This document shows, piece after piece, positions 2,730 through 41,623 of a DNA stretch of 64,000 nucleotides. The position numbers and the translations under genes are program-made. The stretch's first letter is position 1, and every line of letters starts with the position of its first letter. The stretch is from Eubacteriales bacterium (lineage in GTDB: Bacteria > Bacillota > Clostridia > Oscillospirales > CAG-382), in contig JAZRXH010000109.1 of the NCBI GenBank assembly GCA_045600125.1, positions 3,703-67,702 of the forward strand, read 5' to 3'. The notes beneath the pieces are model-generated. The model was not told where the DNA came from. It made no database searches and saw only the letters and a list, made by a program, of their open reading frames with translations.

Positions 2730-3755
2730 TCAGTCCTTCAGAATATCGTTCAGCTCGATGGCGGTATCCACGATCAGTTTTTCCGCTTCGGCGTTCGAGA
2801 AATCCCGAATAAGGCACCCCGCCGCCTTCACGTGTCCGCCGCCGCCGAATTTCTCGCAGATCTCGGCGACGTTGATGTCGTTATTCGAGCGAAGGGACAT
2901 CTTGACCCGGTTGCCGCCGGTCACACTGTCGAAATACTGACGGCCGAAGATGCTCATTTCCACGCCCTCGACCTCCCGGAAGATCTGGGTGATGCCGTCC
3001 ACGTCCTCCTTGAGAGCGCCGACCTCCTCCAGCTCCTCTTCGGTGAGGATGCAGTAGGCGAGCTTCCCGCCGCAGTAGAACACCGTCTTCGGGATGGCAA
3101 GCCCGACGAGACGGAACTGGGCAAGGCTCCGGGTGTCGAACAGATACTTTGAAATTTTCTCGCTGTCGGCTCCGAGGGATTTCAGCCTCGAGGCGTAGAG
3201 AAGGGTTTTAGCGGTGGTGTTTCCGTACTTGAAGCTGCCGCTGTCCGAAGCGATGGCGGCATAAAGCCGGTCGGCGCAGGACTTCGACAAAACGGAAAGC
3301 CCCGCTTCCTCCTTGAGAGCGTCGGCGACGTCAAGAACGATCTCTCCTGCCGCCGAGGCGTCGGTCAGACGGAGGATATAGTCCGCCTTCACCGTGTTGA
3401 TCGCATGGTGGTCGATGCAGAGGTTTATCCTGTCGGCGTATTCGGCGTTTGCTCTTCCGAGAAGCTCGGGAGACGCCACGTCCACCGAAACGATGAAATC
3501 GGGGATAAAGTGTCCGTCCGGCTCTTTTCCAAAGCAGAGCACCTCCTCCGGAAGCCCCTCGCAGATAAAGGCGAGCCGCTTCGGAAGCACATGGACGCAG
3601 GAAAGACGCACGTTCTTCCCCGCCGACAGAAGCATTTCTGCGAGCGCCGCACCCGAGCCGATGCAGTCGCCGTCGGGATTGGAGTGGATGAGTATCAGTA
3701 TATTGCGGTGGGAAAGGAGCAGCTTTGCGCATTCCCTCGGAGTTGCGATTTCCAT
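2730..3755 (-). CDS. nrnA: DHH/DHHA1 phosphoesterase: bifunctional oligoribonuclease / pAp phosphatase NrnA
   Basis: DHH motifs (NPDGDCIGS, IDHHAIN) and the C-terminal GGGH motif of DHHA1. Co-directional with the DHHW gene. Confidence 0.85.
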   Translation of the reverse strand: MEIATPRECAKLLLSHRNILILIHSNPDGDCIGSGAALAEMLLSAGKNVRLSCVHVLPKRLAFICEGLPEEVLCFGKEPDGHFIPDFIVSVDVASPELLGRANAEYADRINLCIDHHAINTVKADYILRLTDASAAGEIVLDVADALKEEAGLSVLSKSCADRLYAAIASDSGSFKYGNTTAKTLLYASRLKSLGADSEKISKYLFDTRSLAQFRLVGLAIPKTVFYCGGKLAYCILTEEELEEVGALKEDVDGITQIFREVEGVEMSIFGRQYFDSVTGGNRVKMSLRSNNDINVAEICEKFGGGGHVKAAGCLIRDFSNAEAEKLIVDTAIELNDILKD

Positions 3756-4030: not shown

Positions 4031-4137
4031 GGTCAAGGATAGGAAGCGGGGAAGGAATGCCGCTTCGTTCTGCCCTTCCCGGAAAGGGGGAGCAAAAACT
4101 CCGTGAAAATGCTATCAACACCAATATGTGAAAGTAT

Positions 4138-4992
4138 ATGAAAGGAAACGTGAAAAAGATGACAGACAGACACACATGGGAGGTCGGCTCCTCCTCCAGC
4201 ACCATCGGCGCCGAGAATCACAACGGCGAAGGCTTTGAGCTTTACCGCAGGGCGGGCATAAAATACGCCGAATTTTCGGTAAACGACGAGAATTGCCGGA
4301 AGCTGGGCTTCTTCGAGGATCCCTGCCGCCTTGTAAAGATCGCAAAGGAGCACGGCGTGGAGTTCTGGTCCTTCCACATTCCCTTCAGCGGCCTTCTCAA
4401 TCCCGCAAACCTCGACCCCGAAAGAAACAAGCTCTCCATGGAGATCCTTGAAAGCTATACCCGTGCCGCTCTGAAGGCGGGCTTCAGGACCCTCGTGCTC
4501 CATCCCTCCAGCGAACCGAACAAGGAAGAGGAGCGGCAGGCGCAGATCGAGCGCAGTACCGAGAACATGGCGTATCTTGCGAAGATTTGTGCAGAAGACG
4601 GCGCCATGCTTGCCATCGAGGATCTGCCGAGAACGTGTCTCGGCAACTGCTCCTTCGATATCCTCACCTTCCTCAACTCCATCCCCGAGGCGGGACTCTG
4701 CTTTGACACGAACCACCTGACCATGCAGCCCAATCTCGACTTCCTCGACGATCTTATCGACAACGGCATGGCAGGCCGCATCCGCACCCTCCACGTCTCG
4801 GACTACGACTTCATCGACGAGCGCCACCGTCTCCCCGGCGACGGCATCAACGACTGGAACGGCATCTTCGACCGGCTCGAAAAGCTGGACTATAACGGTG
4901 TCTTCATGTACGAGGTATCGAGAATGCCCAAAGAGCGGGACGAGGTCTCCCTCTTCGATATCAAAAAGAACTTCGATTCTCTCATAAAGTAA
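4138..4992 (+). CDS. Sugar phosphate isomerase/epimerase (xylose-isomerase-like TIM barrel)
   Basis: AP-endonuclease-2/xylose-isomerase-like TIM-barrel signature (WSFHIPF, LVLHPSSEP, the HLTM and HVSDYD regions). An alternative start is at 4159 (MTDRH). Confidence 0.75.
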   Translation: MKGNVKKMTDRHTWEVGSSSSTIGAENHNGEGFELYRRAGIKYAEFSVNDENCRKLGFFEDPCRLVKIAKEHGVEFWSFHIPFSGLLNPANLDPERNKLSMEILESYTRAALKAGFRTLVLHPSSEPNKEEERQAQIERSTENMAYLAKICAEDGAMLAIEDLPRTCLGNCSFDILTFLNSIPEAGLCFDTNHLTMQPNLDFLDDLIDNGMAGRIRTLHVSDYDFIDERHRLPGDGINDWNGIFDRLEKLDYNGVFMYEVSRMPKERDEVSLFDIKKNFDSLIK

Positions 4993-37367: not shown

Positions 37368-37403
37368 CCCCGCCAAAGGTTCGTCCTTTGGCGGGGATTT
37401 CAT
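37368..37403 (+). terminator. Terminator at left edge of the AT-rich islet
   Basis: CCCCGCCAAAGG-ttcgt-CCTTTGGCGGGG followed by ATTTCAT (weak T tract). Confidence 0.45.
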
Positions 37404-37529
37404 CAAAGACATTTTTCGGTTCATCTGCCAAAACGTTCAGCAGGTGTTTTTTCGCCCTATTTGGAAACAAGCGTAAAACTGCACGGCGAATTCACACCCG
37501 AAGGGTATTTCACAAATCACGCAAGGCAT

Positions 37530-38165
37530 TTATTTTAATGAGGAGCCACAGTATTCACATTCTCCCATATCGCCTATAATAGTATTGTTTGCACCACAGC
37601 AAGGGCAAGCGACAATTTTTTTTGTAACACTGTTTGTGGTTGTATTTACCGTTGCCCCAACCTGCTCTTGAATTTCGGTATTCGGTAAAACAACCTCTCT
37701 TGTACCTTCGTTGATATAAGCATTTTTCAAATATCCTTTACTTATCAGTTTTTGAATATCATTTTTAGCCACATCGTAAGATTTACCAATTGATGAAGCT
37801 ATAACATCAATTTGTCTTTCGTTTTCATTTACAATAACAGATAAATACTTCTTAACATCTTCAGCATCCTTCTTGGTTTTTTTTGAAACTTTCTGTAAGA
37901 CAAATCCGGCGATACCAAAAAACAATATCATACCAATATCATCTGAGCCAAAACCTTCGCTCAAACAAGCAACAAATCCAATTCCGGCAATGCAATATGA
38001 TGCAATGCCAATACCACCTATAAGTTTTCCGGCACCCATAGCTGCTTTCTTGTCAACGGATATGCGCTTTATTATCAAAAATACACCTACTGGCCAAAAA
38101 ATACATAATGCCAAAATTATTATCGGCCATGAATATAACATGCTGATTTCACCTTTTTCATTCAC
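37530..38165 (-). CDS. Membrane protein with C-terminal zinc ribbon (YdjG-like), third gene of islet cassette
   Basis: Two to three TM helices, then a soluble domain ending CPCCGANNTIIGDMGECEYCG. GTG start at 38165 with GGGAGG 9 nt upstream (alternative ATG at 38141). 19-nt gap from the upstream gene. Confidence 0.55.
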   Translation of the reverse strand: MNEKGEISMLYSWPIIILALCIFWPVGVFLIIKRISVDKKAAMGAGKLIGGIGIASYCIAGIGFVACLSEGFGSDDIGMILFFGIAGFVLQKVSKKTKKDAEDVKKYLSVIVNENERQIDVIASSIGKSYDVAKNDIQKLISKGYLKNAYINEGTREVVLPNTEIQEQVGATVNTTTNSVTKKIVACPCCGANNTIIGDMGECEYCGSSLK

Positions 38166-38184
38166 TTTAAATTACCTCCCAAAT

Positions 38185-38859
38185 TTAATAATTTCCTCTT
38201 TTAGTGCTCTTATTTTTTAAAGAACGTAGTTTTATAGCATTTTTTATATCAGATATTTTCTGTGGTATGCTTTCGTCAGCGTTAGCTAATAGCTTTTGCA
38301 ATTCATCAAGTTTATCTAAAATTAGCACCTCATCAGTTGATAGTGCACTATTATCAGAAAACATAAGCATTTCAGATACTTCTTCCAAATCTTTTTTATA
38401 AGCACTTTCCTGATATTCTATTAATAAGCCCTTTGCCTTAGTATATAAAGTATCAACAACCACTTGGCTTTCTGTCAATGGTTTATTTTCTGCTTTTACA
38501 TATCCACTAAAATAAATAACAATTACATCAATAACCAACAAAACACATAATGCCAAAATATTCAATAAGATATATGTTTTTATAAGTAATGGGAAAACAT
38601 TTACAAGTATAATTGACATTACTAAAACAAAACCTAAATGGAAAAGGCTTGTTATAATATTTGCAACAGCAAATATTGACTTTTTAACACTGAGTGCTTT
38701 GATTGTTCCTATACATTCAGCAAATATCAGAAACATCAGTGAAATCCATCTCATCGGGATTGTAAAAATATTGTCAAAGGTCAACAGGTAAAATATTACA
38801 GTTGCCGCTATTGAGGTTGCACCGCAGATTAAAGCGATAGCTTTTGAATTTTTTAACAT
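38185..38859 (-). CDS. Four-TM membrane protein with cytoplasmic helical C-terminal domain (YdjH-like), second gene of cassette
   Basis: ATG at 38859 (MLKNSK) with GGAGGGCGGAG upstream. Overlaps the stop of the SPFH gene (translational coupling). Confidence 0.55.
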   Translation of the reverse strand: MLKNSKAIALICGATSIAATVIFYLLTFDNIFTIPMRWISLMFLIFAECIGTIKALSVKKSIFAVANIITSLFHLGFVLVMSIILVNVFPLLIKTYILLNILALCVLLVIDVIVIYFSGYVKAENKPLTESQVVVDTLYTKAKGLLIEYQESAYKKDLEEVSEMLMFSDNSALSTDEVLILDKLDELQKLLANADESIPQKISDIKNAIKLRSLKNKSTKRGNY

Positions 38860-38872
38860 ATCTCCGCCCTCC

Positions 38873-40171
38873 TTACTCAATCTTTGTTCCGCATTCAGGG
38901 CAGAATTTACTGTTATCTTCTATTTGCTTTCCGCAATTATTGCATTTCTTTATCAAAGGGTGACCGCATTTGGGACAGAATTTACTGTTTCCACTTAGTA
39001 AACTTCCACAGTTTGGGCAAGGTGTAGGAACTTTTGCACCACATACAGAACAAGATGTAGCCCCATCAGGTAAATCTGCTTTGCAGTTACTGCAAGGATT
39101 ATATTTTTTACCACATTCAGGACAGAACTTTGTATCTTCAGTTAAATCTGTGTTGCAAGATGAGCATTTTATTCCTTTTTCGGTTGTTTCTTCTTTTGGT
39201 GTACCTGTAGTGTCAAAACCACAATGATTACAGAATTTTTCGTTTAACCCAATTCGTGCTTTGCACTTCGGGCATTCTTTCGTATCGTTAGTATTCAATG
39301 CTTGCGTTAGCCCACCGAACTGCTGACCGATGGCACCACCGACACCAACACCCATTCCCAAACCAATTCCGGCTCCCATAAAGCCACCTTGCATAGAGTT
39401 GGGATTTGTAGCAGCACCTTCCAATGTATCAAACGAACGTTCCTGCTGATAACTGTATCCAACAATATCCATTTCTGCTCTTTTTGCAAGTGCATTTTTA
39501 AGTTGAACAACGGCTTTATCATCCTCGGGAACATTTATGTCGTTTACAAAGAATGAAACGAGTTTGATTCCGTACTTATCAAAAGTCGGCGAAATTTTTT
39601 CCTGCAAATATGTAGAAATTTCATCGAGATATGCGTTGATTTCCAATACGCTAATATTTTTATGTATTAAATATGACGAAATGACATCTTTTGCCTTTGT
39701 AAGATAAACCCCTCTAAAGAACTTCAAGATTGAGTTTTTATCGAATTGAGGTAATGTTCCAACAAGCTTTAATAAAAACTTTTTTGATTCCTCTATCTGA
39801 ATGCCAAACTGCCCGAAAGCTCTTACGGGGACAAATACCTTATACTTAGGATCTTGAAGCTGAATAGGTGTTGAAGTACCCCATTTTACATCTAATGAAA
39901 AAACTTTATTGATATACCATACTTCGGCAGTAAACGGAGAACGCCCACCGAAAGGAAGGTTTATCAATTTATTTAAAATCGGTATATTGGCAGTATCTAA
40001 GGTGTGTCTGCCTGCACTAAACACATCGCATACTTGTCCGCCCTTAACTAATATAGCTTCTTGTGACTCATTTACGATTAACTGTGTCCAAGTTCCCAAT
40101 TCGTTATTAGGATACTTCCACGCAAACACATCAGGATTACCGTCATATTTTATGACATCAATAATTGCCAT
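38873..40171 (-). CDS. SPFH/Band-7 (Band_7_1, virion-core-protein-like; YdjI-like) domain protein with Gly-rich linker and five tandem C-terminal zinc ribbons
   Basis: N-terminal SPFH domain of about 260 aa (start MAIIDVIKYDGNPDVFAWKYP at 40171; GGGGGA 7 nt upstream). Linker GGFMGAGIGLGMGVGVGG. Five CxxC-x10-14-CxxCG units. Confidence 0.7.
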   Translation of the reverse strand: MAIIDVIKYDGNPDVFAWKYPNNELGTWTQLIVNESQEAILVKGGQVCDVFSAGRHTLDTANIPILNKLINLPFGGRSPFTAEVWYINKVFSLDVKWGTSTPIQLQDPKYKVFVPVRAFGQFGIQIEESKKFLLKLVGTLPQFDKNSILKFFRGVYLTKAKDVISSYLIHKNISVLEINAYLDEISTYLQEKISPTFDKYGIKLVSFFVNDINVPEDDKAVVQLKNALAKRAEMDIVGYSYQQERSFDTLEGAATNPNSMQGGFMGAGIGLGMGVGVGGAIGQQFGGLTQALNTNDTKECPKCKARIGLNEKFCNHCGFDTTGTPKEETTEKGIKCSSCNTDLTEDTKFCPECGKKYNPCSNCKADLPDGATSCSVCGAKVPTPCPNCGSLLSGNSKFCPKCGHPLIKKCNNCGKQIEDNSKFCPECGTKIE

Positions 40172-40213
40172 AACATATTCCCCCTTTGTAAATTTTAATT
40201 TGCTTGCCGAACA

Positions 40214-40236
40214 TTCCACATAATTGCGATTATGTG
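40214..40236. promoter_or_regulatory. Palindromic site CCACATAAT-tgcga-ATTATGTGG (copy 1) in the 5' region of the SPFH cassette
   Basis: The exact reverse-complement copy lies at 40449-40470. Confidence 0.45.
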
Positions 40237-40448
40237 GATAAAGCAGAATAAATGTGTTTAAAATTTGTGATTACAGACACAAAAACAAGACCAATGTTAG
40301 TTGATAAATCTTCATTGGTCAACTTTTGATGTCGTTTTTTGTGCATAACGGAGATTTTTTGTAAATATTACTAAAATCATTGACTTTTATAGTCATATAT
40401 GTTATTATTCATTTAGTATGTAGCAAGTTTGTTTATATAAGTTTTCCA

Positions 40449-40470
40449 CATAATCGCAATTATGTGGCTT
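40449..40470. promoter_or_regulatory. Palindromic site CCACATAAT-cgcaa-ATTATGTGG (copy 2), immediately 3' of the integrase and followed by CTTTTTTATTTT
   Basis: A 9-bp perfect arm palindrome. The T-run that follows on the plus strand gives it terminator-like form. Confidence 0.45.
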
Positions 40471-40477
40471 TTTTATT

Positions 40478-41317
40478 TTAGCACCGCAAAAGTCCGAGCT
40501 TTTGTATTTGTCTACGGTGTACCTCACCCGTGCTCATTGTGTAAATTCTTGTTGTATTTACTGATGAGTGCCCTAAAATATCTGCAAGCCTTACAATGTC
40601 TTTCTGTAAGCTGTAATATGTTCTCGCAAAAAGATGACGAAAACTATGTGGATACACTTTGTCTTTTGAAACTCCGGCGATTTCGCATAACGCTTTTAAC
40701 ATCTTCCATATATGGCTTCTGTCAAGAGGTTTACCATTACGGCTCACGAAAACGGAGCCGTTTTCAATTTTATTTTCTCGGATATATCCCTTTAACATTT
40801 TGCAAAGCTCTTTCGGTAAGATGACAATACGCATTTTTCCTTTGCAGTTAATTACCGCTTGTCCCGTTTTCACGGCAGATGTAGTAATGTAGCGTAATTC
40901 CGAAACCCTTATACCCGTACTTGCTATGGTTTGTATCAGGTAATAAAGCCTTTGATTTTTCTTATCTTTTGCCGCTGTTAAAAGCCGTTCATATTCCGTT
41001 TTTGTCAATTCCTTGTCCTTGCTTGAAAATATCTGCCTTTGTATTTTTAGTGCCTTTATCCGTATATCGTGCCATTCCATAAATGCAAAGAAACTGTTAA
41101 GGGAAGATATTGCCGCATTTACACTTGCAGGAGCATACTTTTCACACAATTCCTTTTTATAATCCAAAGCCAATATCTTTGTTACTTCCTGACCGCACAG
41201 CCAAGCCATAAAGAAGGTTATATCACGGATATATTTTTCTATTGTGTTTTCGCTTTTTTCCTCCTCGATTAAATAATTTTTAAAGCTTTCTATAAGCGCA
41301 TTTGTGATTTTTCTCAT
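40478..41317 (-). CDS. Site-specific tyrosine recombinase (phage-integrase/XerC-D family)
   Basis: SAM-like N-terminal domain plus catalytic domain with R...HxxR...Y signature (HSFRHLFARTYY ... RIYTMSTGE). RBS GGAAAGGAAG. AT-rich codon usage. Confidence 0.85.
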   Translation of the reverse strand: MRKITNALIESFKNYLIEEEKSENTIEKYIRDITFFMAWLCGQEVTKILALDYKKELCEKYAPASVNAAISSLNSFFAFMEWHDIRIKALKIQRQIFSSKDKELTKTEYERLLTAAKDKKNQRLYYLIQTIASTGIRVSELRYITTSAVKTGQAVINCKGKMRIVILPKELCKMLKGYIRENKIENGSVFVSRNGKPLDRSHIWKMLKALCEIAGVSKDKVYPHSFRHLFARTYYSLQKDIVRLADILGHSSVNTTRIYTMSTGEVHRRQIQKLGLLRC

Positions 41318-41483
41318 TCAAATCAACTTCCTTTCCTTTATGTATTCTACCACTTACATAAACAAACTATTTAGAAGCCATCAATGAATTTAAGTATTCA
41401 CACAAATCTCCAGCAACAGTCTATTAAATAAGCGGTATTTTGACAAATGTGTGGATTTCAAGATACAAATTAAGCCCGAATAT

Positions 41484-41523
41484 GCAAGCTGAATTTTGCT
41501 TGTATATTCGGGCTTTTTCTGTT
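41484..41523. repeat. Perfect 16-bp-arm palindrome GCCCGAATATGCAAGC-tgaatttt-GCTTGTATATTCGGGC followed by TTTTTCTG at the right boundary of the islet
   Basis: Direct reading. Terminator-like on the plus strand although no plus-strand gene is upstream. Candidate islet-end structure or recombination site. Confidence 0.45.
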
Positions 41524-41623
41524 ATTAGAGCAATTTTTCTTCTAAATATTTATTTCGCTCGAGGGAGCCCCGCCGACGGAAGTACGCCGCAGGCGGCGGA
41601 AGACGGCGGGGCGGGCGGGTGGG

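Follow-up and report, generated by a model that had tools for sequence, protein, structure and literature searches.

We analysed a 64,000-nucleotide (nt) stretch of contig JAZRXH010000109.1 (hereafter the window; positions 3,703 to 67,702 of the forward strand, assembly GCA_045600125.1) from an Eubacteriales bacterium of the CAG-382 lineage, and within it an AT-rich segment that carries a tyrosine recombinase gene, a pair of lox-like sites and three genes encoding an SPFH protein and two membrane proteins (Table 1). The segment, of 4.1 kb (about 37,450-41,551), has a GC content of 34.8% (measured over 37531-41551) compared with 54.2% for the remaining window, and the GC content at third codon positions (GC3) is 0.22-0.37 in its four genes vs 0.59-0.74 in the neighbouring genes (S41 peptidase, DUF3592, ssb and rpsF). 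It is the single low-GC island in the 64 kb, and the drop is sharp. All four genes lie on the minus strand, and rpsR-ssb-rpsF, open reading frames (ORFs) recognised by sequence, stand directly to the right. An earlier note on this DNA had described a foreign segment of about 4.1 kb and 35% GC next to rpsF-ssb-rpsR, encoding a tyrosine recombinase, an SPFH protein to which a Gly-rich linker and five zinc ribbons are fused, a protein with four transmembrane (TM) helices and a TM protein ending in a zinc ribbon. Profile searches and composition bear out this inventory, the SPFH domain included, with some corrections: the flank is at about 54% rather than 58% GC, the right edge is at about 41551 rather than 41540, and the description of the third protein was incomplete, as it also has a winged-helix-like domain. 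The three genes are as tightly packed as had been stated (gaps of 13 and 43 nt) and form a conserved unit, but the claimed translational coupling did not hold in the form of overlap, since each gene has its own Shine-Dalgarno sequence and none overlaps the next. They are predicted to form an operon. An invertible promoter switch was absent from that account.

Table 1. Features of the AT-rich segment, in window coordinates
Feature	Position	Strand	Details
203-amino-acid (aa) partner	37530..38141	-	3 TM helices, winged-helix-like domain at ~95-150, C-terminal ribbon
224-aa partner	38185..38859	-	4 N-terminal TM helices, ~100-aa helical C-terminal half
SPFH protein, 432 aa	38873..40171	-	Band_7_1 2.5e-49; DZR + Zn_Ribbon_1 in 5 stretches
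Cargo-proximal (distal) lox-like site	40216..40237	.	CCACATAA-TTGCGA-TTATGTGG
Invertible interior (putative), 208 bp	40238..40445	.	Aligned with related loci in both orientations
Predicted intrinsic terminator in interior	40279..40320	-	GACCAATG...CATTGGTC then UUGUUUUUGU; -13 kcal/mol
Candidate sigma-70 promoter	40380..40408	+	TTGACT-17-TGtTATTAT; consensus match 10/12 + extended -10 TG
Recombinase-proximal lox-like site	40446..40467	.	CCACATAA-TCGCAA-TTATGTGG on + strand
Xer-like tyrosine recombinase, 279 aa	40478..41317	-	Pfam Phage_integrase 6e-31, SAM_1
Hairpin	41472..41515	-	-29.4 kcal/mol, z = -8.7; kept in L009 and L010
Sigma-70-like ORF remnant	41525..41551	-	Last 27 nt, KYLEEKLL-stop; alignment with L009 and L010 starts here

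Between the stop codon of the recombinase gene (40478) and the start of the SPFH gene (40171) lie 306 bp, which hold two 22-nt lox-like sites, each with palindromic arms of ~8-9 nt around an asymmetric core. The cores, TTGCGA and TCGCAA, are exact reverse complements, and the two sites are therefore in inverted orientation. The 22-nt site pattern has two matches in the window, with 0.02 expected by chance. Sites included, the putative inverton spans 252 bp and begins 10 nt past the recombinase stop. Its interior contains the top sigma-70 match in the 4.6 kb scanned, on the strand opposite to the cassette and facing away from it. A predicted intrinsic terminator lies in the same interior, and many related interiors have a hairpin like it. 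A T-run (40468-40477, + strand) directly follows the proximal site, with none after the distal site. As assembled, the window switch reads as being in the OFF orientation.

We compared this arrangement with related loci, which are given below by locus number where they must be told apart. An exact 22-mer search of species-representative genomes returned nine stretches in Clostridia metagenome-assembled genomes (MAGs), several of which had inverted site pairs ~231 bp apart beside recombinase homologues, and a metagenome scan with the recombinase added 51 further loci. The comparison set for the switch consists of the 42 loci with a homologous recombinase (53-96% identity), the window included; the same type of sites adjoins such homologues in more than 40 loci. 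The site consensus, C[CA]ACATAAT-N4-ATTATGT[GT]G, follows the recombinase stop, within ~9-25 nt in most of the 42 loci, and the partner site lies ~185-340 bp beyond the proximal one. There are 11 core variants in the set, and in every locus both cores are exact reverse complements. Tyrosine recombinases require that the crossover regions of partner sites match, and the covariation of the cores is what this rule predicts; a terminator role alone would leave it unexplained. A literature search for the site motif returned no relevant paper.

Both orientations of the interior occur among these relatives. In L009, L010 and L007+L003 the interior runs the same way as in the window (75-82% identity), and in L004 it is inverted, at 79% identity vs a background of 64%, while the recombinase flank of L004 is collinear. 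Comparison of L004 with L009 gave the same picture, with 86% identity in the same orientation (+/+) across the recombinase flank and 81% in the opposite orientation (+/-) across the inverton, and the end-points of this inversion coincide exactly with the sites. For 37 of the 42 loci the call was clear, with an outward-facing promoter 22-68 nt from one end of the interior; it points toward the recombinase in 35, among them the window, L009 and L010, and toward the cargo in two (L004 and L008), with five loci unclear. Read as states, the assemblies are thus biased in orientation (35 OFF, 2 ON, 5 unclear). The A/T-run is asymmetric, present at the proximal site in 40 of 41 loci and at the distal site in 0 of 41. 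Cargo genes share the strand of the recombinase gene and begin 5-115 nt beyond the distal site. Some switch loci depart from the two-site layout and carry three or four lox-like sites as nested pairs with an identical core (L031 4819-5177, L063 488-857); such loci could in principle switch among more than two DNA states. In L001 (6679-7521) the same sites enclose a much longer interior of 799 bp that contains several hairpins of high GC content, and a downstream gene encodes a Wzy_C protein. The public assembly of L010 calls an 81-aa 'gene' across the inverton (4063-4308); this call most likely arose as an artefact when the switch region was annotated.

The recombinase is Xer-like by several measures. 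It matches XerA/XerD-like models of NCBIfam at 1e-42 and XerA/XerD in the PDB at 1e-21 to 1e-24; the NCBIfam matches fall under the equivalog cut-offs, and it is therefore not XerC/D itself. Candidate catalytic motifs could be read by eye in the translation, namely the R of TGIRVSEL, HSFRH, GHSS and the tyrosine of RIYT. From its constant place beside the sites we infer that the recombinase is the invertase of the adjacent switch.

At the sequence level, the locus combines inverted repeats, an internal promoter, a nearby recombinase and both orientations between related genomes, the features by which invertons are recognised. We consider it likely that the cassette is a phase-variable operon, turned on and off by a promoter switch that the recombinase flips. 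The recombinase would invert the 208-bp segment between the two sites. In the OFF state, the promoter would fire toward the recombinase gene and its transcript would stop at the hairpin and U-run of the proximal site, and the internal terminator, active in this orientation only, would block read-through from the recombinase gene into the cassette. Inversion would give the ON state, in which transcription from the promoter would cross the distal site, where a U-run is lacking, and enter the SPFH gene with a 5' untranslated region of ~95 nt. The cassette would then be expressed in a subpopulation only, and stochastic ON/OFF control suggests a trait that is costly or only sometimes useful. The OFF-state promoter would fire antisense toward the recombinase gene and might in this way influence how often the switch flips.

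Switch and cassette are separable modules. By blastn, the switch module covers 40215-41551 and is 89% identical to L009, with homology stopping exactly at the distal site; past that site, L009 encodes SLH and BspA-LRR/SLH surface proteins. The cassette unit covers 37530-40173 by blastn, is bounded by the start of the SPFH gene and the stop of the third, and has 70-75% nucleotide identity to loci free of the recombinase. The three-gene cassette was found in at least eight other contexts. It is surrounded by ordinary genes in L012; it lies between a type II CRISPR-Cas9 locus and Wadjet JetABCD in Thomasclavelia cocleata (L013-L018, 7001-9666), near YARHG, Big_2, Mor and kinase genes in L019-22, and beside a divergent Xre regulator among metabolic genes in L079; and in Parvimonas (L080, 5566-11682) it adjoins a PadR-HAAS-DUF4097 operon and a V-ATPase operon. 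PadR-HAAS-DUF4097 gene sets are linked to envelope-stress networks of the phage shock protein (PSP) type. L080 also encodes a 265-aa protein with a weak match to the Apolipoprotein family. Three further loci, L010, L059 and L074 (the last an IMG/VR contig), combine the switch with this cassette, and all three are in the OFF orientation.

The cargo of the switch family is diverse. It includes Wzy_C proteins (12 ORFs in 10 loci), SLH/BspA-LRR proteins, YpsA-SLOG, an ABC exporter, an Eco57I/MmeI methylase, HerA/DUF87, Metallophos+SMC, an amidohydrolase with DUF3089, a metallo-beta-lactamase and helix-turn-helix regulators. The same switch type also stands ahead of a different SPFH operon in L033, L034 and L035 (e.g., L034 5175-8560), which encodes an HTH_26 protein, two proteins with N-terminal zinc ribbons and then a Band_7_1 protein with a C-terminal GYF_2 domain, a gene order closer to that of ydjG..ydjI. 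A further locus classed as viral in IMG/VR (L075, 8001-12000) carries two SPFH/zinc-ribbon paralogues that are 65% and 40% identical to the SPFH protein of the window; they are separated by ~1.4 kb, in which two small ORFs lie. A mobile element consistently linked upstream of the recombinase was considered and rejected, the contexts being heterogeneous. The search of plasmids and phages gave just distant Band_7_1 proteins (<41% identity) and no close copies of the cassette, and the Butyrivibrio plasmid context that it turned up was uninformative.

The proteins of the cassette belong to large or well-conserved families. The SPFH protein, for which no TM helix is predicted, has a Gly-rich hydrophobic linker (GGFMGAGIGLGMGVGVGGAIG) ahead of a C-terminal region with ten CxxC pairs, which make up five zinc ribbons; its family counts 6,591 database matches at E <= 1e-10. 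The family of the 4-TM protein has at least 150 cluster representatives at 50% identity, mostly stand-alone proteins of ~210-240 aa with some shorter fragments. In the family of the 203-aa protein the C-terminal ribbon (CPCCGANNT...GECEYCG) is invariant, and family alignments showed both partner families to be well conserved internally. Against Pfam and PDB profiles, the partner families had no Pfam family and nothing significant. The winged-helix part of the 203-aa protein gave weak fold-level PDB matches to the MarR, CggR and PCI winged helices (E >=0.08), and the protein gave a weak PADLOC match to the CasR winged helix (E 2e-4). By the positive-inside rule, the helical domain, the winged helix and all ribbons are predicted to be cytoplasmic.

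The earlier note had likened the cassette to pspA-ydjGHI of Bacillus subtilis while stating that pspA was missing. In B. subtilis the operon (locus L081) comprises pspA, ydjG (Zn_Ribbon_TF), ydjH (TPM domain) and ydjI (Band_7_1 + Zn_ribbon_3), and YdjI depends on the membrane proteins YdjG and YdjH for its localisation to the membrane, at which it recruits PspA (PMC8581546; bioRxiv 10.1101/2021.02.15.431232). The likeness stands for the SPFH subunit. BLASTP aligns 234 aa of it with YdjI at 23% identity (E 1e-18), its ribbons also match that of YdjI, and the two proteins share Band_7_1 and a layout of soluble SPFH domain, low-complexity linker and C-terminal zinc ribbon (PMC8581546), with five ribbons in the window protein vs one in YdjI. 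As in ydjGHI, the SPFH protein is encoded with two integral membrane proteins, one of them bearing a zinc ribbon. These partners were rejected as YdjG/YdjH homologues by hhalign profile comparison and tblastn, which is where the likeness ends. The 4-TM family matched YdjH with a probability of 0.6% and no TPM match, and the 203-aa family matched YdjG with a probability of 32% through a 17-column ribbon match alone. The domain order also differs, as YdjG has its ribbon at the N-terminus and its TM segment at the C-terminus, whereas the 203-aa protein has TM helices first and the ribbon last. The window cassette further differs in that the SPFH gene comes first and in its proposed control by DNA inversion, as opposed to sigma-W in B. 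subtilis. The absence of pspA was confirmed, with tblastn finding no PspA homologue in the window or in any cassette locus. Detectable homology to ydjGHI is limited to the SPFH subunit. The most economical model would have a YdjI-like SPFH oligomer held on the inner side of the membrane, where, by analogy with YdjG and YdjH, the two membrane proteins would probably act as anchors dedicated to it. Such a scaffold may change envelope properties, either stress tolerance or susceptibility to phage or incoming DNA.

The borders of the AT-rich segment tell how it may have arrived. At the right edge, the ORF remnant corresponds to the end of a 285-aa sigma-70-like ORF that lies 5' of the recombinase in related loci and is otherwise absent in the window; upstream of the remnant at 41551 the window sequence is GC-rich and host-like. 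This truncated sigma-like gene marks the right junction of the foreign segment. The hairpin next to it (Table 1) is probably the terminator of the lost upstream ORF, inherited with the module. No direct repeat >=11 nt common to the two junction regions was found, nor a tRNA gene in the window, and a 10-mer repeat at the junctions was judged a chance match rather than an att site, both copies lying inside conserved modules or coding sequence. Because the right-edge ORF is truncated and junction repeats and a tRNA gene are missing, the islet appears to have been horizontally acquired as a truncated piece of a larger element. The recombinase does not lie where it could cut the islet out. We read the AT-rich segment as a composite of two portable modules that came in by horizontal transfer.

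Several observations concern the surroundings of these modules. In eight related loci a sigma-70-like ORF and a DUF6076 gene stand directly upstream of the recombinase (L009 284-1141; L010 980-2976), and the sigma-70-like ORF might be a third component of the switch element. At the left end, a full-length, sub-threshold match to the Rfam Gut-1 RNA (RF01706; 37444-37540, minus strand; 29.5 bits vs a gathering score of 50) starts inside the third cassette gene, within 11 nt of its end, and extends ~85 nt past its stop; it lies outside the conserved unit, because cassette homology to other loci ends at 37530. An exact look-up of the recombinase, SPFH and SSB proteins found no identical entry on record. 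The host proteins are singletons, with the nearest relative at 66-68% protein identity and synteny lost downstream of the S41 peptidase gene, and the S41 peptidase identity of the closest relatives is 56-68%.

Promoter inversion by tyrosine recombinases is familiar from E. coli fimS with FimB/FimE, from the RecV switches of Clostridioides difficile (cwpV, flgB, cmrRST) and from the Tsr-type invertases of Bacteroides. The window switch shares with invertons a promoter segment of ~250 bp between inverted repeats, both orientations among relatives and an adjoining tyrosine recombinase gene that the switch cannot itself regulate, and the cargo of its sister switches is typical of phase variation (surface proteins, polysaccharide genes and restriction-modification). 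It differs from them in its lox-like sites, which have perfect palindromic arms and a 4-6-nt asymmetric core varying between loci, in a built-in one-way terminator and a U-run at the proximal site only, in travelling as a unit with very diverse cargo, and in that its own cargo is a cytoplasmic-face SPFH scaffold and not a surface structure. Invertons are well known and widely catalogued (PMC11602134, PMC11892184). One of these catalogues describes an 'inverton group 139' beside a tyrosine 'invertase group 35', Clostridia-dominated and ~255 bp long, with flipping verified by reads in Clostridium sp. D5 and Intestinimonas (PMC11892184). The window switch, which resembles this group in span, host class and recombinase type, probably belongs to the same family. 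Neither inverton survey mentions SPFH, flotillin or Band 7 (PMC11602134, PMC11892184). A literature search for Band_7_1/PF13421, which is scarcely mentioned, gave no relevant paper. The type of switch is thus known and its site grammar is defined here, and the cargo is a newly recognised, uncharacterised SPFH cassette.

The sites themselves resemble those of Cre/loxP and Xer/dif, in which inverted arms flank a short asymmetric core that sets direction, partner cores must match, and inverted sites lead to inversion. The window sites have the same inverted arms and asymmetric core, and the recombinase is Xer-like by sequence. They differ in that the arms are just 8-9 nt long and the core of 4-6 nt is variable. 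Unlike in Xer/dif, the gene and its sites are a dedicated local pair, with no evidence of a role in chromosome dimer resolution.

Other explanations of the recombinase and its palindromes were weighed against the switch. Were the paired palindromes merely terminators or regulatory hairpins, the orientation seen in L004 and L008 would be an ancient rearrangement or an assembly error, and the cassette would be constitutively silent or driven from another promoter. Each site does fold as a stable hairpin, the proximal one with a U-run, 35 of 42 loci share one orientation, and assemblers can mis-join at inverted repeats. Yet a terminator has no need of mutually reverse-complementary cores across 11 variants or of a tyrosine recombinase gene always at its side; moreover, the distal copy lacks the U-run in every locus, the L004 inversion ends exactly at the sites, and Clostridia invertons of comparable span (~255 bp) that adjoin tyrosine recombinase genes flip in culture (PMC11892184). 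We regard this explanation as extremely improbable. The integrase-borne mobile islet of the earlier note, in which the recombinase would have inserted or would excise the whole 4.1-kb segment next to rpsR, has in its favour what the locus shares with integrase-bounded islands, namely a base composition foreign to the host and a tyrosine recombinase gene close to one edge, as well as near-identical modules in other Clostridia MAGs and the placement of some related loci near resolvase, MobL or ToxN genes. Such islands differ from the AT-rich segment, which has neither att direct repeats nor a tRNA or other defined target and whose right junction cuts through the sigma-like ORF. The sole repeated sites are internal, inverted and 230 bp apart, and inverted sites give inversion rather than excision. 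The recombinase-plus-sites unit and the cassette also each occur independently, with the recombinase module driving unrelated cargo elsewhere. That part of the earlier account is not supported, and we find it very unlikely.

A different question is what the switched cassette does. The earlier note had raised phage defence, and an anti-phage or anti-plasmid (abortive infection) function would be compatible with the switch and differ in the role of the cassette: membrane-tethered winged-helix/ribbon proteins would sense DNA or phage, the Gly-zipper linker of the SPFH protein would disrupt or remodel the membrane, and phase variation would limit the cost. The neighbourhood of homologues gave this idea one defence context, the Cas9/Wadjet locus of Thomasclavelia cocleata; restriction-modification methylase, HerA, Metallophos+SMC and SLOG cargo of the same switch family, the switch-plus-cassette copy on an IMG/VR contig, and the foreign context and patchy distribution point the same way. 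Against it, several of the copies lie amid housekeeping genes, and another adjoins the PadR-HAAS-DUF4097 operon. The PADLOC check gave no hit for the SPFH or the 4-TM protein and no system match (PADLOC-DB v2); no nuclease, protease, NTPase or other effector domain was found, close copies were missing from plasmids and phages, and a literature search linking SPFH/Band_7_1 to a defence system found no relevant paper. We consider a defence role improbable. A more specific version, an undescribed membrane immunity or exclusion system, would have a winged-helix/zinc-ribbon sensor and the 4-TM partner recruit a multi-ribbon SPFH cage, whose glycine-zipper linker would remodel or permeabilise the membrane when foreign DNA or phage enters. 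Such a system would be costly, and gut Clostridia would therefore have placed it repeatedly under a portable lox-like switch; we judge this version unlikely. Between an envelope or membrane-homeostasis scaffold and a dedicated immunity system, the scaffold is somewhat more likely.

Several points weigh against the phase-variable SPFH operon that we favour. The ON and OFF examples come from different genomes, so that both orientations are seen between related genomes, and ON was found in just two of the 42 assembled loci. The promoter and terminator calls are consensus matches. Each site is palindromic and would form a stable RNA hairpin, and its conservation may partly reflect a terminator role. 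The likeness to inverton group 139 is one of span, host class and neighbouring recombinase type. As for the cassette, the partners lack homology to YdjG and YdjH, so the anchoring model rests on analogy, and the single-sequence AlphaFold models of the two partners are of low confidence (predicted local distance difference test 71 and 60, predicted template modelling score <0.4).

The phase-variable reading shifts the view of the locus from a mobile islet with an integrase to a stochastically switched operon. For annotation, it suggests that a small Xer-like 'integrase' of gut Clostridia is probably an invertase when short inverted repeats adjoin its gene. The switch would be a compact portable module, made up of a recombinase, two lox-like sites with covarying cores, an outward promoter, a one-way terminator and an asymmetric U-run, and its more than 40 natural variants provide material for tests of core specificity and for genetic switches in Clostridia. 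Phase variation is mostly tied to surface structures and restriction systems, and the locus would place a YdjI-type SPFH scaffold among phase-variable traits. It may also offer a handle on the large SPFH family, since locked-ON and locked-OFF strains would differ in this cassette alone.

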